Program-made: the position numbers and the translations under genes
Virus record (IMG/VR): IMGVR_UViG_3300017747_002922
Span: 13,918 to 77,917 of that record
Origin: a virus
Taxonomy: Duplodnaviria; Caudoviricetes
Direction: 5' to 3' (one strand)
Length of the DNA: 64,000 nt
Part shown: one piece after another, positions 2,136 to 56,256 of the stretch
Numbering within the stretch: position 1 is the stretch's first letter
Layout: the number at the start of each line of letters is the position of its first letter
Notes under the pieces: generated by a model
Told to the model about the DNA's origin: nothing
The model's database searches: none
Seen by the model: the letters and a program-made list of their open reading frames with translations, nothing else

Positions 2136-2150
2136 TCCTACGGAGTCTCC

Positions 2151-2606: not shown

Positions 2607-2673
2607 TCGGTACGCGTCAGGGGGTGGCCTCTGTTGCGGTTTCCTCCCTTCCGGCCACCACCTGACGTTTCCT

Positions 2674-2707
2674 GTAGGGGGTGCTTCGGCGCCCCCTACG
2701 CTGTTTT
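2674..2707 (+). terminator. Intrinsic terminator after the capsid/decoration genes
   Basis: Hairpin GTAGGGGGTGC-TTCG-GCGCCCCCTAC followed by GCTGTTTT. A second stem (2615-2667) lies upstream. Confidence 0.75.
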
Positions 2708-2716
2708 GGAGTCCCC

Positions 2717-7499: not shown

Positions 7500-7546
7500 T
7501 TGACGTGACCCTGACGGCGGGTAAGGCCGATCACGAGGAACCCGCC

Positions 7547-8571: not shown

Positions 8572-8575
8572 GATC

Positions 8576-9804: not shown

Positions 9805-9854
9805 GGCGCACGCACGGGGGAACGTGCTAAAGTCCCCACGACTCCGGGTGAACC

Positions 9855-12041: not shown

Positions 12042-12673
12042 ACCGTGAAGAACTGATCCAGAAGGCCATCGCCCTCGGACGCACCCCCGAAGATGCCGCG
12101 AAGATCGCCGACGCGTGGATTGCGCGACAGGACGAGTCCAAGGGCGAGAAGAAGACCGCCCCCAAGGCCGCACCCGCAACCAAGGCGCCCCCGAAACCCC
12201 CCGCCGCGAAGACCCCGGAACCGCCGAAGCCGTCGCCCGTAGTTGCGGCGCAGGTGCCGAAGGTGGGCACGAAGACGTACGGGGCAGAACCGCCGCCAAC
12301 CCCGATGTACGAAAGCGCGTTGCCCGACAGTCCGCTCCGGCTGCCGACCCGGCGCGACGAACCGGAGATCGACATCATGGGTCGTGGTGGCCTCTGGCTT
12401 GACCGCGAGGCCGCCGCCAAGGCGCAGGCCAAAGACCGCGCGCGCGAGGCGGCGAGCGCGCCCACGGCCCCCTCCGTGATGAGGTACGCCGCCGAAGAGG
12501 ACGTGCGCGACTACTCGAACGGCGGCGGGTGGCAGTTCACCGCGCCCCGCGAGGTCCAGGCCATGCGCGAGGCGTTGCGCAAGGTGCCTCGGCTGGCCGA
12601 AGGGCTCGACGACGCCTCCGACGAGGATGTTAGGGCCGTCTACGAAGAAGAGATCGTCAAGGCACGGAGGTAG
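12038..12673 (+). CDS. Virion-associated hypothetical protein
   Basis: GGAG RBS, GTGA overlap, Pro/Lys-rich linker. Confidence 0.55.
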   Translation: MNREELIQKAIALGRTPEDAAKIADAWIARQDESKGEKKTAPKAAPATKAPPKPPAAKTPEPPKPSPVVAAQVPKVGTKTYGAEPPPTPMYESALPDSPLRLPTRRDEPEIDIMGRGGLWLDREAAAKAQAKDRAREAASAPTAPSVMRYAAEEDVRDYSNGGGWQFTAPREVQAMREALRKVPRLAEGLDDASDEDVRAVYEEEIVKARR

Positions 12674-12676
12674 ACG

Positions 12677-39572: not shown

Positions 39573-39863
39573 ATGTCGGACGAGTACAAGATCCAGACCA
39601 TCAAGGACAACCTGCGCGCCCGTCAGCAGGCCCCCAACTACACCGGCTTTCTGACCGAGGAAGAGGCTGACTTCCTGTTCGGCGCCGTCGACCGCGCGAA
39701 GGAAGAGGCCGAAGAGGCGCGACAGGAACTCGAATCCACGCGCTCCGACCTGACCACGCAGATCGAAGAACTCGACGAGAAGGTCAGTGCCGCCGACGAC
39801 AAGATCAAGGACCTCGAAGACGAGATCGAAGAACTCCGCAACAACAAGGACGCAACCCCGTGA
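39573..39863 (+). CDS. Acidic coiled-coil protein
   Basis: Heptad-rich C-terminal half. Confidence 0.65.
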   Translation: MSDEYKIQTIKDNLRARQQAPNYTGFLTEEEADFLFGAVDRAKEEAEEARQELESTRSDLTTQIEELDEKVSAADDKIKDLEDEIEELRNNKDATP

Positions 39864-40975
39864 ACCTCATCATCTCCCGCAAAGAACTCGACGAACTCGC
39901 CGCCCGCGCACGGGGCATCGTCGAATCGAAGCCAAGCAACCCCGTCCTCGGGTGCGTCATCATCGACGCGACGCCTGACGGGGTCACCGCCACGTCCTAC
40001 CGCTCGTCCATGGGCTACGTCGGCACCTACACGGCGAACGTGAGCGACCGCGGCCGGATCGCCGTCGACGTCGACGCGCTCCAGAAGGCGATCAAGACGC
40101 TCCCGCCCGGCCCGATCGCGATGGACGTGTCGACCACGAACCTGCGCCTCAAGATGTCCGTCGGCAAGTCGACGACGACGATCGGCACACTGGACCCCGC
40201 CGACCATCCCGGCGTCGTCGACGTCAAGGCCACCCACACGCTCACCGTCGACGCGCCCGCACTCCGGACGATCATCGACCAGACCGTCAAGTGCATCGCC
40301 GAGGACGACAACAAGTATGGCCTGTCGGTGCTCCTGTTGGAGTTCGTCGGCGGCAAGGTCCGCGCCGTGTCGACCGATGGGAACCGGCTGGCGTGGTCCG
40401 AGTGCGACGCCACGGGGGACGCGCCGTCCGGTACGCTCGTGCCCCGCGCGTGCGTGCTGGAGATGCGCGCGATGATCGACAAGATCGCCGGCCCGGTTGA
40501 GATCGCCATCGAGCCCGGCCCGCGCGCTGGCTCCAAGCCGCGCGCACTCGCCGTCAAGTTGCCGGGCGAGACGCTGACGATCCGGTGCGCCGAGGTCGAC
40601 TTTCCCGACTACCGGCAGGTGTTGCCGACGAACTACAAGCGGACGTGGACGGTCGACCGCGTCAACCTGCACGACACGTTGCGTCGCTTCCCGGTCGCGA
40701 CGGGGTCCAACGCCGTCACCGTCACGCTCACCAACGGCACGGTCCACATGCGCCGGACGTGGGACACCAGCGAGACGAGCGCCGAGATCGACGCGAACTA
40801 CACCGGCGACCGCACGGTGATGGGGTTCAACGTCGTCTATCTGGCGAACGCGCTGGGCGTCTGCACCGGCACCGACGTCGCGATCAAGATGGGTGACACG
40901 CTGTCGCCGGTCGTGATCGAGGACCCTACCAACTCGGCGGCGCAGTTCGTCGTCATGCCCGTGCGGCTGGATTGA
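39860..40975 (+). CDS. dnaN: DNA polymerase III beta sliding clamp
   Basis: 371 aa; P(V/I)LG, AVSTDGNRLAW, FPDYRQVLP, GFN..YL and FVVMPVRL motifs. Confidence 0.92.
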   Translation: MNLIISRKELDELAARARGIVESKPSNPVLGCVIIDATPDGVTATSYRSSMGYVGTYTANVSDRGRIAVDVDALQKAIKTLPPGPIAMDVSTTNLRLKMSVGKSTTTIGTLDPADHPGVVDVKATHTLTVDAPALRTIIDQTVKCIAEDDNKYGLSVLLLEFVGGKVRAVSTDGNRLAWSECDATGDAPSGTLVPRACVLEMRAMIDKIAGPVEIAIEPGPRAGSKPRALAVKLPGETLTIRCAEVDFPDYRQVLPTNYKRTWTVDRVNLHDTLRRFPVATGSNAVTVTLTNGTVHMRRTWDTSETSAEIDANYTGDRTVMGFNVVYLANALGVCTGTDVAIKMGDTLSPVVIEDPTNSAAQFVVMPVRLD

Positions 40976-40978
40976 GCG

Positions 40979-42361
40979 ATGGACTACCTCGACTTCATCG
41001 ACAAGAAGACGCAGGCCGGGAGCGACGAGGGGTTCGCGCCCATCGACCTCCCGCCCGCGCTCTTCGACTTCCAACGGTCGGTCGTTGAGTGGGCGGTTCG
41101 CAAGGGCCGCGCCGCCATCTTCGCCGATACCGGGCTCGGTAAGACGCTCATGCAGTTGGTGTGGGCGCACAACGTCGTGCTCCACACGAACCGCCCCGTG
41201 CTCCTCCTGACCCCGTTGGCGGTAGGCGGTCAGACGGTGTTGGAGGCGGCCAAGTTCGGCATCGATGCGCGTCGCTCGCTCGACGGAAAGACGGGCGCGG
41301 TGTGCGTGTGGGTGACGAACTACGAGAAGCTTCACCACTTCGACCCGCTCGACTTCGCGGGCGTCGTGTGTGACGAGTCGTCCATCCTCAAGTCCTTCGA
41401 CGGTTCAACACGTTCGGCCATCACCGAGTTCATGCGGAAGACGCCCTATCGCCTACTCTGCACGGCGACGGCGGCACCCAACGACTACATCGAGTTGGGC
41501 ACATCGTCGGAAGCCCTCGGCTACCTCGGTCACATGGACATGCTGTCGCGGTTCTTCAAGAACGACGCCGGCAACTCAATCCGCCCCGTCGCGTTCGGTC
41601 ACGACAAGCGGTATGCGGGGTCCATGTGGCGGTTCAAGGGGCACGCCGAGGCGCCGTTCTGGCAGTGGGTGTGCTCGTGGGCGCGGGCCTTGCGCAAGCC
41701 GTCGGACGTGGGCGGCGATGACACGCCGTTCATCCTGCCGGCACTCACCCAAGCGGAGCACGTCATCAAGACAGCGACGCCGCGCGAAGGGTTCCTGTTC
41801 ACGCTGCCGGCCCGCGGGTTGGACGAGCAGCGCGACGAGCGCCGCCGGACCATCACCGAGCGGTGCGAACGGACGGCGGATCTCGTGAACGGAACCGGTC
41901 AACCCGCGCTTTCGTGGTGCCACCTGAACGCGGAGGGGGACCTGCTGACGAAGTTGATCCCCGACGCCGTTCAGGTCAGCGGTGCCGACTCCGACGAAGC
42001 CAAGGAAGAGGCGTTCATGGGGTTCGTGCGCGGGGACATCCGCGTCCTCGTGACCAAGCCGTCCATTGGAGCGTGGGGGCTCAATTTTCAGCATTGTGCC
42101 CACGTCACCATGTTCCCGTCGCACTCGTACGAGCAGACGTACCAGGGAATCCGGCGGTGCTGGCGCTTCGGGCAGACGCGCCCCGTTCACGTCGACATGG
42201 TCACGTCCGAAGGGGAGCGCGGTGTCCTCGACAACTATCTGCGGAAGGCCGTCGCCGCTGACAAGATGTTTTCTCAACTCGTCGCGGAGATGAACCGCGC
42301 CAACTCCATCGACCGTTCCCGAACCTTCAACAACGCAACCAAGGTGCCAACGTGGCTGTAA
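40979..42361 (+). CDS. Superfamily 2 (SNF2/ResIII-like) helicase
   Basis: GLGKT, CDESS, TATAAPND, GLNFQ and RRCWRFGQ motifs. Confidence 0.9.
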   Translation: MDYLDFIDKKTQAGSDEGFAPIDLPPALFDFQRSVVEWAVRKGRAAIFADTGLGKTLMQLVWAHNVVLHTNRPVLLLTPLAVGGQTVLEAAKFGIDARRSLDGKTGAVCVWVTNYEKLHHFDPLDFAGVVCDESSILKSFDGSTRSAITEFMRKTPYRLLCTATAAPNDYIELGTSSEALGYLGHMDMLSRFFKNDAGNSIRPVAFGHDKRYAGSMWRFKGHAEAPFWQWVCSWARALRKPSDVGGDDTPFILPALTQAEHVIKTATPREGFLFTLPARGLDEQRDERRRTITERCERTADLVNGTGQPALSWCHLNAEGDLLTKLIPDAVQVSGADSDEAKEEAFMGFVRGDIRVLVTKPSIGAWGLNFQHCAHVTMFPSHSYEQTYQGIRRCWRFGQTRPVHVDMVTSEGERGVLDNYLRKAVAADKMFSQLVAEMNRANSIDRSRTFNNATKVPTWL

Positions 42362-43317
42362 CCGACCAGATCATCACCGACCGATACGCCATCTACAACG
42401 GGGACTCTGTCGAGGTAATGCGCGACTTGCCTTCGGGCGTCGTCGGCCTCTCCGTCTACTCGCCCCCGTTCGGCGGGCTCTACTGCTACTCGTCCAACGA
42501 GCGCGATCTCTCCAACTGCAAGGACTACGAACAATTCTTCGATCAGTACGGGTACTTCATCCGCGAGATCCTGCGCCTCACCATGCCGGGCCGGATGTCG
42601 GTCGTCCACGTCACCGACGTCCCGTCGGGCAACTCCGGCGGCGACCACCTGATCGACTTCTCCGGCGATGTGATCCGCGCCCACCAGAAGGAAGGGTGGA
42701 AGTACGTTGCGCGCTACTCCGTGTGGAAGGAGCCCCTCGGCGTGCGGAACCGGACCATGCGCAAGGACCTGGCCCACAAGTCCATCGTTGACGACTCGTC
42801 GCGGTGCTCGTGCGCGCAGGCCGACTACATGCTCGTGTTCCGCAAGCCCGGCGAGAACGCCGTACCCATCGAGCACCCGACCGGACTGACCGACTACTAC
42901 GGCGAGCGCGAGATCCCGGCGGAACTCCTGCCCTTCAAGAACTGGAAGGGCAACCAGATCGAGAACCGGTACTCTCACTGGATCTGGCGTCAGTACGCGT
43001 CCTCGTTCTGGGATGACGTGCGCGGCGAGCGCGTGTTGCCCTTCCACGAAGCGCGCGAGGATGAGGACGAGAAGCACGTTCACCCGCTGCAACTCGACGT
43101 GATCGACCGCTCTATCATCCTCTGGTCCAACCCCGGCGAGGTCGTGTTCACGCCGTTCATGGGCGTGGGGTCCGAGGTCCACGAAGCGGTCAAGTTGGGC
43201 CGCAAGGGCATCGGCTGCGAACTGAAGCCGTCGTACTTCGCGCAGGCCGTGAAGAACCTCGCGGCGGTCGACGTCGGCCCCGACGACTCGCAACTCTCGT
43301 TGTTCGGGAAGCCCTGA
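42352..43317 (+). CDS. Beta-class amino-methyltransferase (N4-C or N6-A)
   Basis: YSPPF catalytic motif precedes the TPFMGVGSE SAM-binding motif; GCELK.SYF..A..N. Confidence 0.88.
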   Translation: MAVTDQIITDRYAIYNGDSVEVMRDLPSGVVGLSVYSPPFGGLYCYSSNERDLSNCKDYEQFFDQYGYFIREILRLTMPGRMSVVHVTDVPSGNSGGDHLIDFSGDVIRAHQKEGWKYVARYSVWKEPLGVRNRTMRKDLAHKSIVDDSSRCSCAQADYMLVFRKPGENAVPIEHPTGLTDYYGEREIPAELLPFKNWKGNQIENRYSHWIWRQYASSFWDDVRGERVLPFHEAREDEDEKHVHPLQLDVIDRSIILWSNPGEVVFTPFMGVGSEVHEAVKLGRKGIGCELKPSYFAQAVKNLAAVDVGPDDSQLSLFGKP

Positions 43318-43319
43318 CC

Positions 43320-43544
43320 ATGTGGACCATCTTCGCGACCGGCTACCCGGACTGCCCTCTGATCGTGGACTACCCCGCGGCCGACCTGTCGTCAGCGGTG
43401 TCGGCGATCGTCGGCGAATGGGTGCCGGTCGCGTCGGATGGTCCCCACATCCTCCCGCTCACCGTCTACGGGCCGGGCGGGCAAACCATCGTCACCGCCC
43501 GCGTCGTCGTGATTGACGACGCAGTATCGGAGGTGTCGCTTTGA
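43320..43544 (+). CDS. Hypothetical protein
   Basis: 74 aa; high GC3. Confidence 0.55.
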   Translation: MWTIFATGYPDCPLIVDYPAADLSSAVSAIVGEWVPVASDGPHILPLTVYGPGGQTIVTARVVVIDDAVSEVSL

Positions 43545-44155
43545 TTGGCCGACCCAAAAAGAACACCCCCACCGGCCGCATCCTCGTCCTGATCTGCGCG
43601 ACCCCGGGCGAGGAGACGATCGAATCGTTGGCCGCCCACGTTTATCCAACCCCCCGCCGCGTCAAGGCGTTCACCAACCACGCCGAGGTCCGCGAGTGGG
43701 CGAAGTCGCAAGCAGAGGCGAGACAGCAGGCCCGCGCCCGAACCGCGCGCGTGGTCCAGCACCTCGCCGAAGCCGGCTACCTCCAGTCCAACGGCCGCCC
43801 CGTGATCGCGGACTGGTTCGCGGCCAAGGTCGCCGCCGTCGGTCTGCCCGAAGCGTTGCGGCGTGCGGGCCCGCGGTGGAACCGGTCGCTGGCGAACACC
43901 GCGCCCACCGGCCCGCTCGCGTTCAGCGGCTACCACGAGGGGCCGGGCGTGCTCCATGCCGCGATGGTCAACCGGGTTGCGGCTTCGGTGGGGAATCCGC
44001 GCTGCACCGTCGCGGACATCATCGGGAGCAAGCCGACGACGCGCGAACAACAGGTGTGGGGCAACCTGATCGAGTGGGGAATAATCGTACCCCCACGCGC
44101 CCGCTTCCCGACGGCGAAGGCGTTGGACCTGGTCGCGTCGTGGGGAGCGCCGTGA
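43541..44155 (+). CDS. Hypothetical protein (possible winged HTH)
   Basis: GGAGG RBS with a TTG start. Confidence 0.55.
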   Translation: MIGRPKKNTPTGRILVLICATPGEETIESLAAHVYPTPRRVKAFTNHAEVREWAKSQAEARQQARARTARVVQHLAEAGYLQSNGRPVIADWFAAKVAAVGLPEALRRAGPRWNRSLANTAPTGPLAFSGYHEGPGVLHAAMVNRVAASVGNPRCTVADIIGSKPTTREQQVWGNLIEWGIIVPPRARFPTAKALDLVASWGAP

Positions 44156-44411
44156 CCCTCTTCAACCAGCCCGCGCCGCCCATGCCCCGCGTCGGGGTGT
44201 GGGCGGACATCGGGCGATGGATCACCGGAGACGCCGAATGGCCCGCCGACATCCCCCGCGCCTGTACCGCGTCCTCGTCATCGCCCGTCGCCGTCGTCGC
44301 GAGCGAATCGCCGACCTCAAACTGCAAGCCGAGTTCGGGTGGTGGGACGACTACCGACGCGCCCACAACCTGCCCGCCGACGCCGACCCCTACGCGGGCG
44401 GCTACTTCTGA
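44152..44411 (+). pseudogene. Hypothetical gene split by a -1 frameshift at a C5 run
   Basis: GC3 is high in frame A up to 44257 and in frame B afterwards; one extra C gives WPADIPPRLYRVL...GGYF*. Confidence 0.5.
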
Positions 44412-44492
44412 CCCCAACGTCGTCCGCGTCGCGCTCGATCACTGGGCGCGCGTGTGGGCGACCTACCCGAACCACCGCCCACGAGGTGACGA

Positions 44493-44726
44493 ATGAGACT
44501 CTCCTACCGACTCCGATGGCCCCCCTACCTGTTCTGGTGGGCGTGGGTCGTCACCCCATGGCGCCGACTCGTTGTGTGGACCGATCGCCTTCGCGGCCTG
44601 TCGTGGTCGCGCTGTCCGGGTTGCGGTGCCTTCGAGGAGGAGATGCAGGACCCGTGCGACGCCTGCCCTTCCCGGTGCCATCACCCGATCACCGTCAACC
44701 GCTACGGGAGTGTGACCACACCATGA
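44493..44726 (+). CDS. Hypothetical Trp/Cys-rich protein
   Basis: CPGC..CDAC; GAGG RBS. Confidence 0.5.
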   Translation: MRLSYRLRWPPYLFWWAWVVTPWRRLVVWTDRLRGLSWSRCPGCGAFEEEMQDPCDACPSRCHHPITVNRYGSVTTP

Positions 44727-45085
44727 ACCCCGCCGACCTGACCGCTATCCGCACCTCGATCCTGACGGCCGACACGTCCACGATGTCCGGTGCCGAGCGT
44801 GACTGGTACCGTGCCTGCGTCGCCCTGCTCGCCGAGGTCGACCGCCTCACGCCCGCGCCGAAGCCCGAACTGCCGCCGATCGACGAGTTGCCCATGGTGG
44901 TCGGCAGGACGTGGGGCCGCTTCTACGGCACGGCCCTGTTTCACTCGCTCGCCAAGTACAACGACGAGCACTTCCCAGCGTGTGGTCGGGTCATGCCCCG
45001 GCGCTACATGACGCACGCCGTCACTACGCAGTCTCGCCCCTGCGCCGCCTGCCTCGCGTTGGCGAAATCTTCGGAGCAACCATGA
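44723..45085 (+). CDS. Hypothetical protein (CxxC)
   Basis: ATGA overlap; LLAEVDRL and PCAAC. Confidence 0.55.
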   Translation: MNPADLTAIRTSILTADTSTMSGAERDWYRACVALLAEVDRLTPAPKPELPPIDELPMVVGRTWGRFYGTALFHSLAKYNDEHFPACGRVMPRRYMTHAVTTQSRPCAACLALAKSSEQP

Positions 45086-45441
45086 ACCCCACCTGCGCTC
45101 ACACCGTCATCGTCCCGTCGCCGTCCAACGGCCACCACTGTCGCGACTGCGGCACCCCGTTCGTCCTCGCCCGGTTCGCACCCCTGACCCCGTGGAGCAC
45201 CTTGGCCGCCGTGGTTGAGGAGCGCAACCGCTACTATGCCGAGGTCGCCGCGCTTCGGTCGCAGGTCGAGGAGTTGATGCGGTGCGGGGTGTCGATCCAC
45301 AAAGCGGCATCGGCGGCCGTGGACTTCGAGCGCGAACGGGTCAACGGGATCCTCACGCGCATGGCCTCGGACGCGCACGACCGGGGCGACTCGGCGGCGG
45401 CGGACGCGTTGGCGGCGGCGGCGATTGCGGTGCGGCCGTGA
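45082..45441 (+). CDS. Zn-ribbon plus coiled-coil hypothetical protein
   Basis: CAH..HCRDCG; GGAG RBS. Confidence 0.6.
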   Translation: MNPTCAHTVIVPSPSNGHHCRDCGTPFVLARFAPLTPWSTLAAVVEERNRYYAEVAALRSQVEELMRCGVSIHKAASAAVDFERERVNGILTRMASDAHDRGDSAAADALAAAAIAVRP

Positions 45442-45466
45442 CCCCGCGCCACTTGCGGCGGGGGCG

Positions 45467-45495
45467 TTGACGGGGGCGGCGTGATCTGGTAAGAA
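45467..45495 (+). promoter_or_regulatory. Promoter of the TGT-like/queC operon
   Basis: TTGACG-N17-TAAGAA with a TG extension. Confidence 0.65.
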
Positions 45496-45615
45496 GACTT
45501 CGATTCGCTGATGTTCGATGGCAGTCGAACGGAAGCTCCGATTCTTAGCGGCGATGGCCGCGCCCTGCGCCACCCGGTTCCGCTGCCACGGCGCCGGGTG
45601 GCCTTCGGAGTTTCG

Positions 45616-46236
45616 GTGATCTCGTACGCCTCTCGCACCGGCACCAAACGCAACCTCGCGGCCCTCCGTGGCGCGGGGTGGCGGATCCTTGTGTCGGCGA
45701 AGGGCGTCCACCGCACCGAGGGATTCCCCTACGCGATCGACAACGGGGCGTGGACGGCGCATCAGCAGGGCATCCCGTTCGACGATGCGGCGTTCATCAA
45801 GTGCGTGAACTACCTCGGCGCCGACGCTGACTTCGTGGTGGCCCCTGATGTCGTCATGGGCGGCATGGGGTCGCTCGCGTTGTCGCTGACGTGGCTCCCG
45901 TGGTTGCGCGATCGGTGCCGCCGGATCCTTGTCCCCGTTCAGGACGGGATGACCGACGAGGACATCGCGCCGCTCCTGTCTCCCGAGCTCGGGATCTTCG
46001 TGGGCGGATCGACCGAGTGGAAGGAGGCGACCACCCTCCGATGGTCGCGCCTTGCTCACGCTCACGGGGCGTGGTGCCACGTCGGGCGCGTCAACACGGT
46101 TCGTCGGATCCGCATCTGTCAGTTCGCCGCCGTCGATTCGATCGATGGTTCGTCCGCCTCTCGCTACGCCGTGACCCTGCCGAAACTTGACGGGGCCGTT
46201 CGTCAACCTTCTCTCTTCGGGTGCCTGAATGCCTGA
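45616..46236 (+). CDS. TGT/DpdA-like base-exchange transglycosylase (TIM barrel)
   Basis: YAIDNGAW, VVAPDV, VPVQDG, FVGG, HVGRVNT and DSIDGSS; GGAG RBS before GTG 45616; coupled to queC. Confidence 0.7.
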   Translation: MISYASRTGTKRNLAALRGAGWRILVSAKGVHRTEGFPYAIDNGAWTAHQQGIPFDDAAFIKCVNYLGADADFVVAPDVVMGGMGSLALSLTWLPWLRDRCRRILVPVQDGMTDEDIAPLLSPELGIFVGGSTEWKEATTLRWSRLAHAHGAWCHVGRVNTVRRIRICQFAAVDSIDGSSASRYAVTLPKLDGAVRQPSLFGCLNA

Positions 46237-46825
46237 CCTTGTCGTCCTTCTCTCCGGTGGCCTTGACTCGACGGTGTGCGCCGAGATTGCCCGTCGATCG
46301 GGACACCTTCACTCCGTCGTCTCGTTCGCGTACGGACAAGCGAATACCGTGCAGGAGATGGGTGCGGCCGAACGGTGGGCGGCGCGTCACAGGGTTCCCC
46401 GCAAGGTGTTCGCGGTCGACGTGCCCGGCGTGTCCGCCCTCGACATCGGGGCGGGCGCCCACGGCCCCCGCGTGGTCGCCGGCCGCAATCTGCTTCTCCT
46501 GTCGCACGCCACCGCCTACGCGTTGTCGGTCGGTGCCTGTCGCGTGTGGATCGGTTGCAACGCGGACGACGCCGAGGACTACCCCGACTGTCGGCGCGAG
46601 TTCATCGAGGCCGCCGGGATGATGACGTGGCTCGCCTACGGGTCGCGGGTGTGGGCCCCCCTGATCGACATGAACAAGCGGCAAGTCGTGGCGAAGGCGC
46701 GCGAACTCGGGGTCGACATCGCTGATACGTGGTCCTGCTACCAGCCGTCGATCGCTCGCCCGCTGGAACCGTGCGGGACCTGCAACGCGTGCCGACTTCG
46801 GGCGTCCGCGATGGGTGACGAATGA
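46229..46825 (+). CDS. queC: 7-cyano-7-deazaguanine synthase (QueC family)
   Basis: VLLSGGLDST, YGQ, GRN, YPDCR.EF, APL...K and TWSCY..PCGTC.AC.LR. Confidence 0.95.
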   Translation: MPDLVVLLSGGLDSTVCAEIARRSGHLHSVVSFAYGQANTVQEMGAAERWAARHRVPRKVFAVDVPGVSALDIGAGAHGPRVVAGRNLLLLSHATAYALSVGACRVWIGCNADDAEDYPDCRREFIEAAGMMTWLAYGSRVWAPLIDMNKRQVVAKARELGVDIADTWSCYQPSIARPLEPCGTCNACRLRASAMGDE

Positions 46826-47109
46826 CCGCCCCCGCCAACTTCGGCCTCTACATCAAATCCCTCCGCACCGCCGCCAACCTGTCGCAGCACGAGCTTGCCC
46901 GCGACCTCGGCGTGTCTCACGTCACCCTCGGCGAAGTGGAGCGCGGCAAGCGGACCACGCTCGCGCCGCGCCACTGGCCCGAACTCGTGCGCCGGATCGG
47001 TGCTGACTTCGGGGTGCTTCAGGCCCTCGCCACGACGGAGCGCGTAGCCACCCTACAGCGCCGGATCGACGCGCTACAGGTTGGCAATCTGCCTACTGAC
47101 GGGGTATGA
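46822..47109 (+). CDS. XRE-family HTH regulator (paralogue 1)
   Basis: FGLYIKSLRTAANLSQHELARDLGVS..LGEVERG. Confidence 0.85.
   Translation: MTAPANFGLYIKSLRTAANLSQHELARDLGVSHVTLGEVERGKRTTLAPRHWPELVRRIGADFGVLQALATTERVATLQRRIDALQVGNLPTDGV
46849..46888 (+). repeat. 40-bp direct repeat, copy 1
   Basis: TACATCAAATCCCTCCGCACCGCCGCCAACCTGTCGCAGC; 39/40 identical to 47852-47891. Confidence 0.95.
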
Positions 47110-47115
47110 TGCGTC

Positions 47116-47820
47116 ATGGTTCACGCGTTGTCTCCTGAATGGCCGCACCCGTGGCCCCGACCGGTTCGCGTGCCGCTTGACGTGGTGACGCCGCTCCTCC
47201 GTGAGTACCACCACTACAAGGGCGGCGGGGACGTGGGCGACGCGTGGGCGTGCATCGAGCGCGGGCGTGTGGTCGCCGGTTGGGTGTGGACCCCGCCGGC
47301 ACCGGGGGCGGCGTCGAAGTACGCGCCATCGTGTCCTGCGGCCGTGCTCGCCCTGTCGCGCATGGTCGCGATCCCGAAGGCGGATCGGGCGTGGCAGATC
47401 AGCAAACCCCTCCTCTGGATCATGCGCCACGGGCTCGACCGGGGCCGATGGCCGGTCCTCCTCACGTACTCCGACAAGGGCGCCGGCCACGAGGGGATCG
47501 CCTACATGGCGTCCCGGTGGAAGCGCGGCGAGACGACGGTATCGGACACGTATGAGGACAGCGACGGGCGCCGCCGCTGTCGGTGCGTGAGGGGGGGGCA
47601 ACGCGTCCCCGGCCTGACGCGCACGGGGTCCACCGAGATCACGGCGTGGACGCACCGCGTGTGCCCCATGGGTGAGGAGCAGGCGTGGATGGAGGCCCAC
47701 GGGTGGCAGCGGGTCAGGGTGCCCGGCAAGACGTGGCGGTCGGGCGCGGACGCTCACACATGGCAGTGGGTCGACCCGCGGCAGTTGAACCTCTTTGAAG
47801 GAGTGCGTCATGCACTGTAA
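47116..47820 (+). CDS. Mom-like GNAT-fold DNA adenine modification enzyme
   Basis: LREYHHY, LALSRM and LLTYSD.GAGHEGIAYMAS.W..G match the Mom-family SYAD..GH.G.IY.A.NW pattern. Confidence 0.75.
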   Translation: MVHALSPEWPHPWPRPVRVPLDVVTPLLREYHHYKGGGDVGDAWACIERGRVVAGWVWTPPAPGAASKYAPSCPAAVLALSRMVAIPKADRAWQISKPLLWIMRHGLDRGRWPVLLTYSDKGAGHEGIAYMASRWKRGETTVSDTYEDSDGRRRCRCVRGGQRVPGLTRTGSTEITAWTHRVCPMGEEQAWMEAHGWQRVRVPGKTWRSGADAHTWQWVDPRQLNLFEGVRHAL

Positions 47821-48118
47821 AACCGAGGACCGAGCGACTTCGTTCGGGTCTTACATCAAATCCCTTCGCACCGCCGCCAACCTGTCGCAGCGGGCGTTGG
47901 CCGAGCGGTTGGGCGTCACCCCTGCCCACATCGCGCACATCGAGCAGGGGGAGCGCCGCGCCCTCGCCGAACGCCACTGGCCCGCGCTGGTCGCGATCGG
48001 GGCGGACCTCAACACCTTGCGCCGGCTGGCGGCCCGCCCCGAGGTTGCCGCCCTTCACGACGAGATCGACCGACTGCGTGCGCAGTTGGCTGGTAGTGCG
48101 CTTATCGGCGTGGTATAG
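47810..48118 (+). CDS. XRE-family HTH regulator (paralogue 2)
   Basis: FGSYIKSLRTAANLSQRALAERLGVT..IAHIEQG; GGAG RBS. Confidence 0.85.
   Translation: MHCKTEDRATSFGSYIKSLRTAANLSQRALAERLGVTPAHIAHIEQGERRALAERHWPALVAIGADLNTLRRLAARPEVAALHDEIDRLRAQLAGSALIGVV
47852..47891 (+). repeat. 40-bp direct repeat, copy 2
   Basis: One mismatch to 46849-46888. Confidence 0.95.
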
Positions 48119-48124
48119 TGCTGC

Positions 48125-49063
48125 ATGGCGTGGTTCAGCACTGACGAGAGCGTATGGGAGGCGGCGTGCTCCGACCTCCCCCAACCGTGGCCAGAGGCGT
48201 TCGCGCGCATGGATCTGCGCTACCACGAGAACCGGCACCGGATGAAGGTTGCGCCGTTTCCGGGGCGCGTCGCCCTGTCGAACCGGTGGGGGTGGACTGA
48301 CCGCAAGGTGCGGAATCTCCTCGACGCCGACGACTGGCACGACCCCCAACGGCCGGTCGCCCGTGAGGACCTGCGCGGCAAGTGGGACGGAAAAGTCCAA
48401 CAGCCCGCCAACACGCCGCCAACACCGCGTCCAACAGACCGCCAACAGGACAACGAACCAACGCCGGTAGTTGAGAAGAATCCGCCAACAGCCTGCCAAC
48501 AGGATGTCCAACAGCCTGCCAACTCGGTGTCCATCGCGCGCGTCTCTTCTCTAACCACGGGAACCACTGAACCACGGGAACCACTGGAGACACATACAGC
48601 GCCCGCAAGCGGGCCCGTGTGTGTCGAACCTGAACCGCAACTGACCCTGCTCACCCTACCTGCTCCGAAGCCCGTCGACCTCGAAGCGGCATGGACGGCA
48701 CTCACGGCATGGACCCCGAAGCCGGCAGCGTGGAAGCTAACGGCCGAGCGTCGCAAGCACCTGACCGCGAGGATCGCCGACCACGGGGAAGCGACCGTGT
48801 ACCGGGTGGCCGAATGGGTGCGGACCTCGGAGCACGATCGGGCGGCGTTCCTTAGGGGTCACGGAGACGTCGACACTCTGTTGAGGCCGGGGAAGTTCGC
48901 CACCTACGCCGCGATGAGTGCGGGGCCGGCACCGGCAGCGAAGGTCAACGGGCGCCCGGTCGCCCCGTCCTACGCCGACACCCGCCGCGAGATCGAAGAG
49001 ATGGAGCGGGGCGCAACGCTACGAACCGGCGCATTCGACGCCGACTATGAGGTACTCCAGTGA
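48125..49063 (+). CDS. Replication initiator (lambda O-like organisation)
   Basis: N-terminal wHTH (GRVALSNRWGWTDRKVRNLL), repeat-coded linker, C-terminal RRKHLTARI..DTLLRPGKF..Y; upstream of loader and dnaB. Confidence 0.75.
   Translation: MAWFSTDESVWEAACSDLPQPWPEAFARMDLRYHENRHRMKVAPFPGRVALSNRWGWTDRKVRNLLDADDWHDPQRPVAREDLRGKWDGKVQQPANTPPTPRPTDRQQDNEPTPVVEKNPPTACQQDVQQPANSVSIARVSSLTTGTTEPREPLETHTAPASGPVCVEPEPQLTLLTLPAPKPVDLEAAWTALTAWTPKPAAWKLTAERRKHLTARIADHGEATVYRVAEWVRTSEHDRAAFLRGHGDVDTLLRPGKFATYAAMSAGPAPAAKVNGRPVAPSYADTRREIEEMERGATLRTGAFDADYEVLQ
48391..48586 (+). repeat. Iteron array / probable replication origin inside the initiator gene
   Basis: CCAAC at 48397, 48408, 48419, 48431, 48442, 48458, 48485, 48496, 48508 and 48519 (mostly 11-12 bp apart), plus a perfect 17-bp tandem at 48553-48586. 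Confidence 0.75.
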
Positions 49064-49677
49064 TCACGATCAACCAGATCCTCGACATGTTCGAGGTGCT
49101 CGAATCGACGGGACTCCGGCCCCCCGACGTCTACGGCCGCCCGGCGGATCGGGCGACGGGCACCCCGAGCGGTCGGGCGTTCGCGGCACGGGTGTACGTG
49201 GTGGCGTTCGACCAAGGCGGGTACACATGGCCCGAGGTCGAAGCGGCGGCGATGGCGTACGCGCTCGAACCGCAGGAAGGGCAGTACCCGAAGCCGTGGC
49301 CGAGCCCGGGGCACATCGCGGCCCGTACGGCGATGGGTCGACTCGCGTTGACCCTCGGCACCCCCGCCGACGCGGATCGGGCATGGGTCGACTTCGTGGC
49401 CCGCGGGCAGTCGCTCGTCAGCAAGGGCCGCCCCCCGACGATGGAGTACGGCCGCGATGCCCTCGACCCGGACCCGCACCGACACAAGGCGATGTGGGCG
49501 GGGCTCTGCGCACTCGGCGGGTGGGACCTGTACCGCATGGCCGACCCGTCCGACCGGGGCCTGTCGATGCGCTTCCGTGCCGCCTTCACGGCGTTCCGTG
49601 AGCAGCAGCGGACCTCACCCGGCGTGGTGCGTGAGATCCTGGCCGCGTCCCCCCGCCTGCTTTCGGTGGCGTCGTGA
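49060..49677 (+). CDS. Putative helicase loader
   Basis: Lies between the initiator and dnaB; W..V..A...Y....WPSPGHI pattern. Confidence 0.5.
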   Translation: MITINQILDMFEVLESTGLRPPDVYGRPADRATGTPSGRAFAARVYVVAFDQGGYTWPEVEAAAMAYALEPQEGQYPKPWPSPGHIAARTAMGRLALTLGTPADADRAWVDFVARGQSLVSKGRPPTMEYGRDALDPDPHRHKAMWAGLCALGGWDLYRMADPSDRGLSMRFRAAFTAFREQQRTSPGVVREILAASPRLLSVAS

Positions 49678-51044
49678 GCAACCGCGGCCTCCCTCACGAC
49701 TGGCACATCGAGCAGGTGTTGTTGGGGACCATTCTCGCGTGCGGCGACGTGTCCGCCGTGGTCGACGTGGTCAAGCCCGACGACTTCCACAAGCCGACGC
49801 ACGCGCTGTTGTTCGGCCACATCCTCGCGTGCGCCGCCGAGGGCGACCCCCCGACCCCGGCCCGCTTGCTCCGCCGGATCGAGGCGGCGGGTGCGCTGGA
49901 GTCGTTGGCGGCCGTCTCGCACATGGGCCCGACGCACTACGTGCTGTCACTGTCGTCGCATGGCGACATCCCCGAGAACATCGGCGGCCTGGTCCGGGAC
50001 CTCCTCCGCGACTCACGCCGACGGGCGGCCGTCCTCGAACTGCGCGCCCTCGAAGAACGGCTGTTGTCGGATGTGAGCGTGGACCCCGCCGTGGGCCTGA
50101 TGGAGATGCAGGCCCGGTTGGAGGCGAGCCAGCCGCCAGCGAAGGGCGAGGGGTGGGTACCGCAGGCCGACGTCGTGCGCGAACGGCTGGAGGACATCCG
50201 ACACCGGACGGCGAACCCCGGGCAGATCACCGGGATCCCGACGGGGATCGACGCCCTCGACCGGCTGATCGGCGGCTTTCAGCGGACCCGGTTCTACGTC
50301 ATCGCTGGCCGCCCTGCGATGGGAAAGAGCGCGGTCATGCAGTGCTTTGCGGAACACGGCGCGAAGTTCGGCGACGTGGGGATCATCACGTTGGAGATGC
50401 CGAAAGAGGAGATCGGAGAGCGCGCCCTCGTCAAAGAGGCGCGCGTCAACAGCACCCGCGTACGGGATGGCGCGATTGACGAACACGACTGGCGGCGATT
50501 GTGCGATGCGGAAGAGTCACTGTCGGCGCGCAACGTGTGGATTGATGATGCGTCTGCCGCGTCAATCTCGCAGATCGTCAACAAGATCCGAAAGCTGAAA
50601 GAACGTCGGCCGAACCTGCATACGGTCTATTTGGACTACCTCCAGCTTGCGACGGCGGAAGGGAAGAAGAATGGGAGTCGTCAGCAGGAGATTGGACAGA
50701 TCACCCGCGGTTGTAAGACCATCGCAAAGCAAGTCGATATTGCCGTGGTTGCACTTGCCCAACTGTCGCGCCAATGCGAAGCGAGGGTAGACAAGCGCCC
50801 CGTACCCTCGGACCTGCGCGAGTCGGGCGACATCGAGCAGGACGCCGACGCGATTATCTTCGTGTACCGCGACGAGGTTTACGTGAAGGAAAGCCCGAAA
50901 AAGGGAACGATGGAGATCATCGTCGGGAAGCAAAGGAAGGGCGCGACCGGCACGATCGAGTGTGCGTGGATCGGCGCCGAGTATCGGATCGCGAACATCG
51001 ATCGCCACGTCGAACCAGACTACCCCCGGAGCTACGAACAATGA
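49674..51044 (+). CDS. dnaB: Replicative DNA helicase
   Basis: GIPTG...LD, IAGRPAMGKS, TLEM, LDYLQL, LAQLSR, DLRESGDIEQDAD and KQRKG. Confidence 0.97.
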   Translation: MSNRGLPHDWHIEQVLLGTILACGDVSAVVDVVKPDDFHKPTHALLFGHILACAAEGDPPTPARLLRRIEAAGALESLAAVSHMGPTHYVLSLSSHGDIPENIGGLVRDLLRDSRRRAAVLELRALEERLLSDVSVDPAVGLMEMQARLEASQPPAKGEGWVPQADVVRERLEDIRHRTANPGQITGIPTGIDALDRLIGGFQRTRFYVIAGRPAMGKSAVMQCFAEHGAKFGDVGIITLEMPKEEIGERALVKEARVNSTRVRDGAIDEHDWRRLCDAEESLSARNVWIDDASAASISQIVNKIRKLKERRPNLHTVYLDYLQLATAEGKKNGSRQQEIGQITRGCKTIAKQVDIAVVALAQLSRQCEARVDKRPVPSDLRESGDIEQDADAIIFVYRDEVYVKESPKKGTMEIIVGKQRKGATGTIECAWIGAEYRIANIDRHVEPDYPRSYEQ

Positions 51045-51421
51045 TCGACCTCGCCAACCCCGCCGCCGTGCGCCTGCTTCAACTCGCGGTTCACCGGCCC
51101 GCGCTGGTTGGGCCCGTCCTGCGCGACGAGGACCCGGCCGCCCTCTTTCACGACTCCGAGGTGTTCGACGCCCTGGCGCGCTTGCTGGGTGGGTGGACGG
51201 CGCAGAAAACCGCCGACGCGTCCCGCGACCCCGAGGTCAAGCGCCGCCTGCCGTGGATGGCGTCGATGCCGTGGTGCGGGGTGAAGCACGCCCGCGGCGA
51301 GGTGTGCGCGTGCGAGGGCGACCCGGCCGAGGTGCGGCGCCTCGTCGGGGAGGTCAAGGCGTGGCGCGCGAAGGTGGCGGAAGACGGCGACGTGCTCGCG
51401 TCCGTGCTGGTGCCCCGATGA
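51041..51421 (+). CDS. Hypothetical protein
   Basis: Coupled to dnaB. Confidence 0.55.
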   Translation: MIDLANPAAVRLLQLAVHRPALVGPVLRDEDPAALFHDSEVFDALARLLGGWTAQKTADASRDPEVKRRLPWMASMPWCGVKHARGEVCACEGDPAEVRRLVGEVKAWRAKVAEDGDVLASVLVPR

Positions 51422-51594
51422 CCCCCGCGCCCGAACCCGAGTCCGCCCCGCACTTCTGGTGGTGCTCCGTGTTTTTGCACAAGCACCGCCCGGGCGTTCG
51501 GTGCTCGTGTCCGCCGACCATGCTGGCCGAGGCGGTTGAGAAGGAACGGCTGATCAAGATGGCCGCCACCATGCCGCCAGCGGTCGCGAAGTGA
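51418..51594 (+). CDS. Small Cys/His hypothetical protein
   Basis: C..H.H..CSC; ATGA overlap. Confidence 0.4.
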   Translation: MTPAPEPESAPHFWWCSVFLHKHRPGVRCSCPPTMLAEAVEKERLIKMAATMPPAVAK

Positions 51595-52160
51595 TCACGC
51601 TCACCGCCAGCGAACTCCTCCACGCGTCCGGGGTGGGCGCGCGGCGTCACGCCCAAAACCTCATCGCCGGCCGACCCGATCGCTACGGTGCGCCGCCGGA
51701 TTGGTCAGTCCATATCGAGGGCTCGTGTGGGGAGTTAGCGGCGGCCAAGGCACTCAATGTCTACTGGCCCGCGTCCGTGGACTTCCGCGAACGGCAAGCG
51801 GGGGACCTCCCGGGCGGCATCGAGGTCCGCACCACATCACACGCGATGGGGTGTCTCCTGCTCCATCCCGAGGACAAAGACGATCGCCGCTACATCCTCG
51901 TGACGGGGCGCGCGCCGTCGTTCGTCGTGGTCGGATGGTGTCGCGGGTGGGAGGGCAAACACCAACAGTTCTGGAAGGACCCGGCCGGGGGTAGGCCCGC
52001 GTTCTTCGTCGGTCAGAAGTACCTTCGCCCGATGTCGGAATGGTCGGCGCCCGACGACCTGCGTGCAAGGGTCGAGGCTACTCCAGGGATCCGCCGCCTC
52101 GTCGCCGCGGTGGACGGGACGGTGGAGAGCGTCACGGCGTCTCGGATCGAGGTGCCGTGA
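51591..52160 (+). CDS. Putative PD-(D/E)XK-like nuclease
   Basis: G..GELAAAKAL...GDL..IEVRTT pattern. Confidence 0.5.
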   Translation: MITLTASELLHASGVGARRHAQNLIAGRPDRYGAPPDWSVHIEGSCGELAAAKALNVYWPASVDFRERQAGDLPGGIEVRTTSHAMGCLLLHPEDKDDRRYILVTGRAPSFVVVGWCRGWEGKHQQFWKDPAGGRPAFFVGQKYLRPMSEWSAPDDLRARVEATPGIRRLVAAVDGTVESVTASRIEVP

Positions 52161-52163
52161 GCG

Positions 52164-53006
52164 TTAGCGCGAACGTTCGCGGGTCATGATCACCCGTCCG
52201 ATGACTTCGGCGACGGCGGGCACGACGGCGTTTCCGAGGCAGCGCAGTTGACCCACCCGTCCGGGAACCCCATGAGCCACTCGACCCACCGGGGGTTCAA
52301 TGGTCCACCAACCGCGTTCGGGAGTTGATCCCCACTCCCTGCGGGTCGCTTCAACCTGCTCGCCCCATCCGGGGCGTTCGGGTAGCGGTAGTCCCGCGCC
52401 GCGGGTGTCGGCCACTTCGTTACGAAGTCGGTGAGCGTGTCCCCCACATGAATCCCGCTCGGCGGAATCCTCGACCTGTTCGCTGTCGAGTTGCGTGATG
52501 CCTTGCTGTCCCCCACCGTAGGCGTCGGTATACGCAAGGATGAAGAGGCGGTCCCTCCGGTGAGGGGCGCCGACGGCGGAAGCGGGGATGCAGTCCCACT
52601 CCGCATCGTACCCGCTCGCGGCCAAGTCTCCGAGAACGCGACCCAGCCCCCGAACAAGGAGCGCTGCGACGTTCTCCACGACGACGTACCGGGGTCGTAC
52701 GTCGCGAATGAGTCGTGCGTAGTGGGACCAGAGGCCGGAGCGGGTGCCGTCGGCGATTCCTGCTCCCTTCCCAGCGAGGGAGATGTCTTGACAGGGGAAT
52801 CCGCCACATAGAACGTCGACATAAGGGGGCGCCTCCAGCGTTGTGATGTCCTCAAACCGGTGTGCGGCGGGCCAGTGGTGGGCAAGAACGGAGCGGGCGA
52901 ACGGATCCCGCTCGCACTGCCACACGACAGGCCCGAGGCCCGCGCGCTCTAAGCCACATTCGAGGCCGCCTATACCCGAGAACAGCGACCCGATCGTGAG
53001 ACTCAT
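52164..53006 (-). CDS. DNA cytosine-C5 methyltransferase, large subunit
   Basis: Motifs I (LFSGIGG), IV (GGFPCQDIS), VI (ENV), VIII (HRRDRLF) and X (LGNAVVP); no motif IX in this frame. Confidence 0.92.
   Translation of the reverse strand: MSLTIGSLFSGIGGLECGLERAGLGPVVWQCERDPFARSVLAHHWPAAHRFEDITTLEAPPYVDVLCGGFPCQDISLAGKGAGIADGTRSGLWSHYARLIRDVRPRYVVVENVAALLVRGLGRVLGDLAASGYDAEWDCIPASAVGAPHRRDRLFILAYTDAYGGGQQGITQLDSEQVEDSAERDSCGGHAHRLRNEVADTRGAGLPLPERPGWGEQVEATRREWGSTPERGWWTIEPPVGRVAHGVPGRVGQLRCLGNAVVPAVAEVIGRVIMTRERSR
52190..52822 (-). CDS. Nested alternative-frame ORF, probable C5-MTase small subunit carrying motif IX
   Basis: GGAGG 9 nt upstream of ATG 52822; WPTP.ARD and LNPRWVEWLMGFPDGW. 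Confidence 0.65.
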   Translation of the reverse strand: MSTFYVADSPVKTSPSLGREQESPTAPAPASGPTTHDSFATYDPGTSSWRTSQRSLFGGWVAFSETWPRAGTMRSGTASPLPPSAPLTGGTASSSLRIPTPTVGDSKASRNSTANRSRIPPSGIHVGDTLTDFVTKWPTPAARDYRYPNAPDGASRLKRPAGSGDQLPNAVGGPLNPRWVEWLMGFPDGWVNCAASETPSCPPSPKSSDG

Positions 53007-54815: not shown

Positions 54816-55169
54816 CTAACTCTCTTTCGGGGTGGCGTTCGCGGCCAACAATCGCGACCACTTGCCGCGGGTCTTCACCGACACGCCGATCCGCCGCGCC
54901 TCGTGGATTCGCTGACGGCTGACCCCGAGGACCGCTCGAAGCTCCTCGGTCGGCAGGGTGAGCAGGTCCGCGACGGGGACCAGGTCCGACCGCGCCGGCC
55001 GTCCGCGCCCCTCGATCGACGGGATCCCGCGAGCACGGCGCCACCGACCGACCACGGCCACGTCGAGGTCAACGCCGGTCGCCTTCTGCCACCACTCGAC
55101 GATCGCGGCGTCGGTCGAGATGCCGAGGTGGGGGAGGACTTCGGGCGGGCAGGTCGTGCGGGCGCTCAT
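54816..55169 (-). CDS. HTH protein with GRGRP (AT-hook-like) motif
   Basis: EELRAVLGVSRQRIHEARR. Confidence 0.65.
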   Translation of the reverse strand: MSARTTCPPEVLPHLGISTDAAIVEWWQKATGVDLDVAVVGRWRRARGIPSIEGRGRPARSDLVPVADLLTLPTEELRAVLGVSRQRIHEARRIGVSVKTRGKWSRLLAANATPKES

Positions 55170-55717
55170 CGCGTCACCTCGGCAGCGAGCATGGCGCGCA
55201 CGCGTTCGATCTCGTCGTCGGTGTGGATCGTACCGCCACGGTTGAGGCGCAGGTACAGGCGCAATCGGTCGGCGCGGGGGAGCGTCACGTACCAGACCTC
55301 GAAGTGCGGCCCCGTCAACCAGTAGCCGGTGACGTCAGCCTGATCACGGTCGGACAGGTCGCGCAGGTGGAGTGTCGACCCGTCGTAGAGTTCGGCGCCG
55401 ATCTCCCCCTTGAGCCACCGGTACACTGACCGGAGGCGCTGCTGCCCGTCGATCACCTCGTCGGGTTGCAGCGTCTTGGTGATGGGGAACCGGTTGACGA
55501 TCACGGGCTGAACGCGGCCGCCCTCGATGAAGTGCCCGACGAACTGCGCCGCCTGACGTTCGGTCCAGACGTATGCGCGTTGGTAGTCGGGTGCGAGGTT
55601 CAGTGCGCGGTCGGGGTTGGTTGATTCGATGCGGTCGATCAGGGACCGCATCATCAACGTCTCGGTGCCGCCGCTGCGGATCGGCTGGTAGATGCTTTCG
55701 ATTGACGGGCGGTTCAT
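55166..55717 (-). CDS. Stand-alone DUF262 (ParB-like, GmrSD N-terminal) domain protein
   Basis: PDYQRAYVW, EVIDGQQRL and LN.GGT motifs. Confidence 0.8.
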   Translation of the reverse strand: MNRPSIESIYQPIRSGGTETLMMRSLIDRIESTNPDRALNLAPDYQRAYVWTERQAAQFVGHFIEGGRVQPVIVNRFPITKTLQPDEVIDGQQRLRSVYRWLKGEIGAELYDGSTLHLRDLSDRDQADVTGYWLTGPHFEVWYVTLPRADRLRLYLRLNRGGTIHTDDEIERVRAMLAAEVTR

Positions 55718-55845
55718 CGCGACTCCATGGGGCGAACGTGAAGCGGGGGATGCACGGCCACGGTCGTCGCCCACCTTCGCGGACGACCACCACGTCTCCC
55801 ACGCGGGATCCTCGGGAGGGCCGGCGTAGTGTGCGTCGAGCCCCC

Positions 55846-56256
55846 TCACGCCGACACCCGCGCCGACCACCGAGCGGCGGCCTGCTCGTGGGCGTCCGCC
55901 TTGCGAGCGAACCCCGCCGCAGTGCGCAGGTCGGACGAGCGCCACCACGCGCGCTCCTCGTCGGTGTCGCCGATGGCTCTCTGCGCGGCCTCCAGACGCA
56001 CCGCCGCCGCGTCGCGCATCTCGCGGGCAGCACGGACATGGGGGCCGACCACGAGCGCGACCAGTGATGCGCGGAGGGGCACGGCGCGCACGGGGCAGAC
56101 CGTCGCGCGCATGTCGGCGGGGGTGACCCACGCGCGACCGGTCGGCCATGCGTCGTGCGGCCACGTCTCGCCGGACTCGATCGCGAAGTGCGCGCGGTCG
56201 TGCCCGTATTCGAGGGAGCAGGGGGCGCCGTTGCGGGTGGCGGTGCAGGTGTTCAC
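55846..56256 (-). CDS. Hypothetical protein
   Basis: GGAG RBS, GTG start; C..C..H..H N-terminus. Confidence 0.55.
   Translation of the reverse strand: MNTCTATRNGAPCSLEYGHDRAHFAIESGETWPHDAWPTGRAWVTPADMRATVCPVRAVPLRASLVALVVGPHVRAAREMRDAAAVRLEAAQRAIGDTDEERAWWRSSDLRTAAGFARKADAHEQAAARWSARVSA

Follow-up and report, generated by a model that had tools for sequence, protein, structure and literature searches.

The genome of an uncultured phage with a GC content of about 68%, deposited as IMG/VR virus record IMGVR_UViG_3300017747_002922, encodes enzymes of four DNA-modification chemistries, each recognized by family or fold identity and with most of the catalytic motifs conserved. The genes lie at positions 42352-53006 of the stretch of 64,000 nucleotides analyzed here (the window), which corresponds to bases 13918-77917 of the 77,917-bp record; the record, rated complete, has a direct terminal repeat of 123 bp. 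We propose that the phage probably collected four independent functions for post-replicative modification of DNA as a mosaic, most likely widening the set of host restriction systems that it can escape. The five genes that encode these functions are listed below, where TGT stands for tRNA-guanine transglycosylase.

42352-43317, plus strand: beta-class N6-adenine/N4-cytosine DNA methyltransferase (PF01555, E = 9.5e-18; SPPF motif)
45616-46236, plus strand: candidate short DpdA-like transglycosylase of 206 amino acids (TGT-type TIM barrel fold; linkage to QueC)
46229-46825, plus strand: QueC, 7-cyano-7-deazaguanine synthase (PF06508, E = 3.8e-44)
47116-47820, plus strand: divergent Mom-family GNAT protein, candidate DNA base acyl- or aminoacyl-transferase (structural match to Mom of phage Mu)
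52164-53006, minus strand: C5-cytosine DNA methyltransferase (PF00145, E = 7.4e-39; full-length match to phrog_363, E = 1e-82)

The initial annotation of this DNA, which was made from the sequence without database searches, had named the same five genes, had placed them among replication genes, and had described them as a layered armour of four chemistries. The gene content agrees with that description. The beta-class amino-methyltransferase was borne out by its Pfam family and the order of its motifs, and the neighboring replication genes were identified as those for a beta clamp, an SNF2-like helicase, and DnaB. QueC and the gene resembling TGT and DpdA are both present, although fold and profile evidence was needed for the latter, and the family link of the Mom-like GNAT protein rests on evidence of the same two kinds. 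The C5 methyltransferase is likewise present, with its Pfam family and motifs, and only its strand had to be corrected, to minus.

In the proposed scheme, the beta-class enzyme, using S-adenosylmethionine, would methylate an exocyclic amine (N4 of cytosine or N6 of adenine) at some motif, and the C5 methyltransferase would produce 5-methylcytosine. QueC would convert host-made 7-carboxy-7-deazaguanine (CDG) to preQ0, which the transglycosylase would then exchange for guanine in double-stranded DNA, giving dPreQ0 or a derivative of it. Finally, the Mom-family protein would place an acyl or aminoacyl group on a DNA base. We infer that these enzymes act on the phage DNA and that the resulting modifications have a role against restriction, and the bases, motifs, and extent of modification are to be taken in the same sense. 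Two of the four gene sets are too divergent or too dependent on the host to tell the content of the virion DNA. Should all four functions act on phage DNA, few natural repertoires of DNA modification in mid-sized phages would be as heavily layered; should the enzymes be inactive or work at a low level, the phage would simply be a mosaic that carries several of the usual genes against restriction.

The amino-methyltransferase scored 65.4 bits with the PF01555 (N6_N4_Mtase) model, for which the cut-off is 26.7 bits, and was the only PF01555 gene in a scan of the whole genome (65.6 bits). Its SPPF motif (motif IV, residues 37-40) precedes the FxGxG motif I (FMGVGS, at about residues 269-274), which is the order of the beta class. 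The best sequence match in PDB was 2zie, a putative methylase from Thermus (E = 6e-19), and the other relatives in PDB included the adenine enzymes CcrM, MboIIA, and DpnA, with N4-cytosine enzymes matching more weakly. The product would therefore be either N4-methylcytosine or N6-methyladenine. The start of the gene overlaps the stop of the upstream helicase gene by 10 nucleotides, and the two proteins match successive segments of the 986-position phrog_16 model (268-590 for the helicase and 817-922 for the methyltransferase), so that they may be the split form of a fusion existing in other phages.

The C5 methyltransferase, the only PF00145 gene in the whole genome, scored 134.5 bits with that model (cut-off 22) and 119.6 bits with TIGR00675 (cut-off 100.65), and contains the motifs I (FSGIGG), IV (GGFPCQ), VI (ENV), VIII (HRRDR), and X (GNAVVP). 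The gene is convergent with the plus-strand block that contains the other four. Its GC content at third codon positions is 0.70, compared to 0.83-0.91 in the other modification genes, and this atypical codon composition agrees with an origin that is separate from theirs or more recent. Two points speak against the proposed role of the methyltransferases. The canonical motif IX was not seen in the main frame of the C5 gene, an absence that may be typical of the family, given that the phrog_363 match covers the full length. In addition, methyltransferases of phages can have a role in regulation or packaging instead of anti-restriction. An open reading frame of 231 amino acids is nested in another frame of the C5 gene (52190-52885, minus strand), and Pfam finds nothing in it.

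The Mom-like protein scored 15.7 bits with the Pfam Mom model (PF25680), below the cut-off of 27.1 bits, whereas several of its relatives exceed this cut-off: a relative with 67% identity (P0007) scored 29.3 bits, and the more distant P0018 and P0067 scored 34.1 and 43.4 bits, respectively. An AlphaFold2 model built from 34 sequences, with a predicted local distance difference test score (pLDDT) of 90.7, was compared with solved structures. Mu Mom (8bv8) was the best match both in Foldseek (E = 9e-9; next GNAT protein, 5e-5) and in VIA, where 178 residues aligned over Mom residues 20-229 with a Z-score of 16.5 and a root-mean-square deviation of 3.0 (next GNAT protein, Z 13.3 with 134 residues). 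The identity to Mu Mom is 11-14%. An hhalign comparison between the profile of the clade and a profile of true Mom proteins gave a probability of 79.7% and an E-value of 1.5e-5 over 136 columns, and in this alignment H58, R111, W143, D149, and Y159 of Mu Mom correspond to the clade-invariant residues H32, R82, W112, D120, and Y130. Direct sequence searches were negative: BLASTP of the protein showed no significant similarity to Mu Mom, its profile found nothing among PDB sequences, and tblastn gave no match in isolated phages. The clade, with at least 289 metagenomic relatives, occurs in phage contigs at positions typical of accessory genes, and retains 26 invariant columns over 34 sequences with identity down to 37%. 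The predicted structure and the profile alignment thus point to a real but rebuilt relative of Mom.

The assignment of a Mom-type activity has to be weighed against the apparent loss of features essential in Mu. By profile alignment, as opposed to superposed coordinates, S124 and R151 of Mu Mom correspond to A92 and G122, and the helix-turn-helix (HTH)-like insertion at about residues 175-209 of Mu Mom has no counterpart aligned by hhalign. Substitution of S124 or R151 abolishes the activity of Mu Mom, as does deletion of the insertion (PMC13219725). These losses, together with the score under the Pfam cut-off, would fit a GNAT protein with another acetylation target, be it a protein, a small molecule, or, as for TacT, a charged tRNA, or else a relic that has lost its activity, and the genome would then encode three chemistries. 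The GNAT fold is common to enzymes of very many specificities, and the 178 aligned residues among the 210 spanned in the Mom chain leave room for a missing insertion of 35 residues. We regard this explanation as unlikely, though as the most serious of those considered here. The 26 invariant columns argue against decay, the clade is found in phage contigs at accessory positions, and among solved structures Mom stands clearly closest. Moreover, at the site of the insertion the model has an arginine-rich loop of 20 residues, together with beta strands and a C-terminal beta-hairpin extension. In our reading this loop, which lies between the last long strands and carries the conserved residues G151, R153, and G160, occupies the site of the DNA-binding insertion of Mom.

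A Mom-family enzyme is therefore the reading that we prefer for this protein, and the comparison with Mu bears on what it may do. In both phages a protein with the GNAT fold is encoded as a single-gene accessory function. In contrast to Mu, the shorter arginine-rich loop and the C-terminal beta extension appear to replace the HTH-like insertion of residues 175-209, and no Com-type zinc-finger gene was seen; instead, two XRE-type HTH paralogues flank the gene. Mu Mom uses Gly-tRNA(Gly) as the donor and targets N6 of adenine, where the group rearranges to yield carbamoylmethyl-adenine. Since S124 and R151 are not conserved in the alignment, the chemistry, donor, and target of the Mom-like protein should not be assumed from Mu. 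It is conceivable, although we consider it a long way from probable, that this conserved clade installs a hypermodification unlike that of Mu, through another acyl or aminoacyl donor or on another base. In the present phage such a modification would join two methylations and a deazaguanine, and a single virion genome would carry alterations at G, A, and C.

The gene upstream of queC was assigned as a transglycosylase from its context, fold, and profile. Its open frame extends from 45511, but every homologue starts at the GTG codon at 45616, which is preceded by GGAG. Of these, gene context carries the most weight. QueC directly adjoins the family member, in either order, in 21 of 80 IMG/VR loci, and the 433-residue protein P0317 is a natural fusion of a transglycosylase-like domain followed by QueC. 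The family is linked in genomes to QueC and to complete preQ0 clusters. Homologues from phages of Arthrobacter, Mycobacterium, and Rhodococcus are annotated as 'DpdA-like tRNA-guanine transglycosylase'. With regard to the fold, an AlphaFold2 model from 31 sequences (pLDDT 87, predicted TM-score 0.85) was searched against PDB with Foldseek, and the top 39 matches were all TGT, with E-values of about 1e-5, 15-18% identity, and a query-normalized TM-score of about 0.6. In VIA, which is independent of Foldseek, TGT ranked first (Z 14.2), DpdA (7ui4) third (Z 13.8), and the archaeosine TGT fifth (Z 13.5). Finally, an alignment by hhalign of a 50-sequence profile with E. coli Tgt placed the invariant residues D78, Q109, G130-G131, and D177 at the segments FDEC, IIQG, VGGL, and MFDC, respectively, which in Tgt contain, respectively, the substrate-binding Asp, a Gln, the GGL segment, and the nucleophile Asp.

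Against this assignment, the 206-residue protein has no match in Pfam, NCBIfam, or PADLOC, its sole family match being a PHROG of unknown function, and the Pfam TGT model (PF01702) found nothing in the whole genome at E <= 1. The hhalign comparison with Tgt covers 122 columns, ends at residue 274 of 375, and is statistically weak (E only 0.006). In VIA, other TIM barrels lie less than one Z unit away (pyruvate kinase, Z 13.8), so that the fold by itself is not decisive. The protein also lacks the zinc subdomain that TGT and DpdA have: it stops at residue 206, and the family contains no conserved cluster of Cys and His residues. Profiles of the family did not find TGT or DpdA among PDB sequences, and a profile search of 1.84 billion representative proteins returned strong family members, but no bridge to TGT, among the matches listed. 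Compared to the DpdA proteins of phages (9g, CAjan, Rosebush; DpdA1-4) and the bacterial DpdA 7ui4, the protein from the window shares the TGT-type barrel, candidate catalytic Asp residues as far as the weak alignment with Tgt places them, and the tight linkage to QueC (in the viral record G071, described below, also to FolE and QueD), but is just 206 residues long, lacks the zinc subdomain, is missed by the Pfam TGT and PADLOC DpdA models, and has QueC alone of the preQ0 pathway in its genome.

An alternative to a function on DNA is that the short TGT-fold protein and QueC modify a protein, as do Cap9 and Cap10 of the type IV cyclic-oligonucleotide-based antiphage signaling system (CBASS), or a tRNA, affecting decoding or blunting anticodon nucleases. 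Type IV CBASS likewise pairs a QueC-like protein (Cap9) with a TGT-like one (Cap10) for protein deazaguanylation, and the Cap10-CdnD complex (9ntn_B) aligned with our model over 198 residues with a Z-score of 12.4, less than two units below TGT and DpdA. The protein also has no direct match to sequence models of DpdA or TGT, the best PADLOC model for QueC is a defence-type QueC, and QueC scores below the NCBIfam equivalog cut-off. However, TGT and DpdA outscore Cap10, the block of phage genes that holds the pair contains neither a CD-NTase nor an effector, and a CD-NTase partner did not turn up in the loci inspected. The transglycosylase-like family is large, with 3,472 matches (E <= 0.001) in a database clustered at 90% identity and 3,049 representatives at 50% identity, and those of its loci that were examined are phage or prophage contigs. 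As to tRNA, the zinc subdomain of TGT sits in the C-terminal part that contributes to tRNA binding, and it is this subdomain that the 206-residue protein does not have. Furthermore, G071 has a distant member of the family within a preQ0 cluster that is complete and of the type found in phages together with DNA modification (PMC6884629). We consider a protein or tRNA substrate improbable, and retain DNA as the predicted substrate of this pair.

Two further family members with additional domains were observed: P0160 (312 amino acids), in which the transglycosylase-like domain is also fused to QueC, and P0256 (912 amino acids), in which it is combined with a PD-(D/E)XK nuclease domain. Rfam gave nothing at the gathering score in the window, and in the region 45300-45700, where a riboswitch of the preQ1 type could precede the transglycosylase-like gene, it gave only a chance-level match (E = 4.9).

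The QueC protein itself matched PF06508 with 151.2 bits (cut-off 22) and the equivalog model TIGR00364 with 129.6 bits, under its cut-off of 150.3. The SGGxDS motif of the PP-loop is intact at the N-terminus (LLSGGLDS), and a C-terminal Cys cluster (WSC...CGTCNAC) is of the zinc-binding type. The start of queC overlaps the stop of the transglycosylase-like gene by 8 nucleotides. Precursor supply tells against substantial deazaguanine insertion in this phage. FolE, QueD, and QueE or other radical-SAM proteins had no matches in the whole genome at E <= 1, so any insertion needs CDG made by the host. The same dependence on host precursors holds for phages with a singleton DpdA, such as phage 7-11 of Salmonella and phage Orion of Mycobacterium; phages of this kind that have been measured contained between 0 and about 0.1% modified guanine (PMC8306585, which cites PMC6884629). 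The present phage differs from them in the additional presence of QueC. Genes annotated as DpdA-like in actinophages share the short family with the protein from the window, and the DpdA of the measured phages may differ from that family.

The initial annotation had further suggested that the pairing of a Mom-like gene with deazaguanine insertion is unusual. We assessed this by co-occurrence in IMG/VR. A Mom-like gene was found within 8 kb of the transglycosylase-like gene in none of 80 loci, and in none of 50 whole viral records carrying that gene, of which 27 are at least 90% complete. Conversely, neither a transglycosylase-like gene nor QueC was found within 8 kb of the Mom-like gene in 27 loci. 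Among 25 records with the Mom clade, two contain a deazaguanine system: the present genome, which served as the positive control for this search, and one of the 24 others, G071 (IMGVR_UViG_3300000033_000127). The pairing is thus rare but not unique, and nothing indicates that the Mom-like and deazaguanine genes act jointly. Among the papers of the literature library searched that mention DpdA as well as Mom, none describes the two in one phage.

Apart from the present genome, only G071 was found to combine the Mom-like clade with a deazaguanine system, and there about 14 kb separate the Mom-like gene from the deazaguanine cluster. This cluster (L131, G071:C1:11000-26000) is fuller than that of the present phage and consists of genes for a QueE-like radical-SAM protein, NT5C, MazG, a transglycosylase-type protein, QueD, FolE, and QueC. 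The transglycosylase-type protein is longer (304 amino acids) and is a distant member of the family, matched by the A3 profile with an E-value of 5.7e-7 and weakly by the PADLOC DpdA model (E = 0.0013). The FolE of G071 has an N-terminal fusion partner resembling a phosphoribosyltransferase, and beyond the cluster come an SNF2 helicase and a DUF6884 protein.

A contig with an otherwise unrelated phage backbone (ENA contig k141_95392; L114:10001-11707) carries a transglycosylase-like gene 97% identical to that of the window. At the DNA level the two sequences are 90% identical along 877 bp, and the similarity breaks off within queC, which marks a recombination breakpoint in that gene. The similarity to QueC ends at codon 88; the QueC called on this contig has 137 amino acids and is followed by an unrelated open reading frame of 223 amino acids. 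The same backbone carries Dam, an HD domain, and DUF5131. Together with the co-occurrence counts, the HTH paralogues flanking the Mom-like gene, and the strand and lower third-position GC of the C5 gene, this cassette makes the four functions look separately acquired, and the modification genes look like a mosaic rather than one co-evolved system. We rejected the Mom-like gene and the transglycosylase-QueC pair as one module on the counts of 0/80, 0/27, and 0/50. For the same reason we consider most improbable a stepwise action of the Mom-like enzyme and the deazaguanine pair on one base, in a new two-step hypermodification encoded by one module with an HTH gene between them: the four genes do run head to tail over 45616-47820 with overlapping or nearly abutting stops and starts, and G071 is a second record with both functions, but its genes are far apart and the near-identical cassette of L114 has no Mom-like gene.

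If the four functions do work on the DNA of the phage, two of the enzymes are of interest in themselves, namely a minimal, zinc-free DNA transglycosylase accompanied by QueC alone, and a relative of Mom with a rebuilt active site. They would bear on the natural reach of the newly described tRNA-dependent DNA modification and of deazaguanine insertion, as well as on tools for restriction-resistant DNA.

The genes on either side of the Mom-like gene encode two HTH proteins that are 54% identical to each other (E = 9e-26).

46822-47109, plus strand: XRE-type HTH paralogue 1, upstream of the Mom-like gene (PF13560, E = 7.7e-10)
47810-48118, plus strand: XRE-type HTH paralogue 2 (PF13560, E = 2e-10)

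The open frame of the second paralogue begins at TTG 47795, and the ATG at 47810 is preceded by GAAGGAG. The two genes also share a DNA repeat of 60 nucleotides, 83% identical, with the copies 1003 nucleotides apart. A promoter-like sequence (TTGGCA-18-TATGAT) ends 5 nucleotides upstream of the ATG of the Mom-like gene; promoter-like sites were no more common than in shuffled sequence. The flanking paralogues and the promoter-like site suggest either that a cassette was inserted by duplication or that a gene with possible toxicity is controlled locally.

With the exception of the C5 gene, the modification genes sit among early and replication genes in a block on the plus strand, in which the following were identified.

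39860-40975, plus strand: DNA polymerase III beta clamp (PF00712, PF02767, PF02768; phrog_947, E = 2.5e-49)
40979-42361, plus strand: SNF2-like helicase (phrog_62, E = 3.7e-48)
49674-51044, plus strand: DnaB-type replicative helicase (phrog_19, E = 1.2e-88; TIGR00665, E = 7.4e-99)

A megablast search of the 10.7-kb region against isolated phages returned zero matches, and the closest named relatives, by a single protein only, are the Erythrobacter phages R6L and ZS04 with 51% amino acid identity. The search of IMG/VR with DnaB found no close relatives, so that there is no syntenic phage by which insertions could be dated. The beta clamp did not identify a host, its sole match being 23% identical and from a Lentimonas metagenome-assembled genome. 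No tRNA genes, such as a tRNA-Gly for Mom, were found in the window.

Outside the region of interest, the structural region of the window contains a single open frame of 3283 amino acids (12677-22528, plus strand), whose segment 15194-16323 matched no Pfam family at E <= 0.01. In genome bases 1-14000, which lie outside the window, 10 larger open reading frames were scanned, including those for proteins of 812 and 762 amino acids; nine of the 10 had no Pfam family, and the tenth encodes a zinc ribbon whose match, of the RbpA-like type, is weak. A protein of 332 amino acids (55166-56164, minus strand) contains a GmrSD_N/DUF262 (ParB-like) domain (PF03235, E = 1.1e-12) and has weak PADLOC matches to NsnA and other defence candidates. 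Its gene is part of the leftward block in which the C5 methyltransferase comes last, and it is noteworthy that a relative of enzymes restricting modified DNA is carried by a phage alongside so many modification genes.

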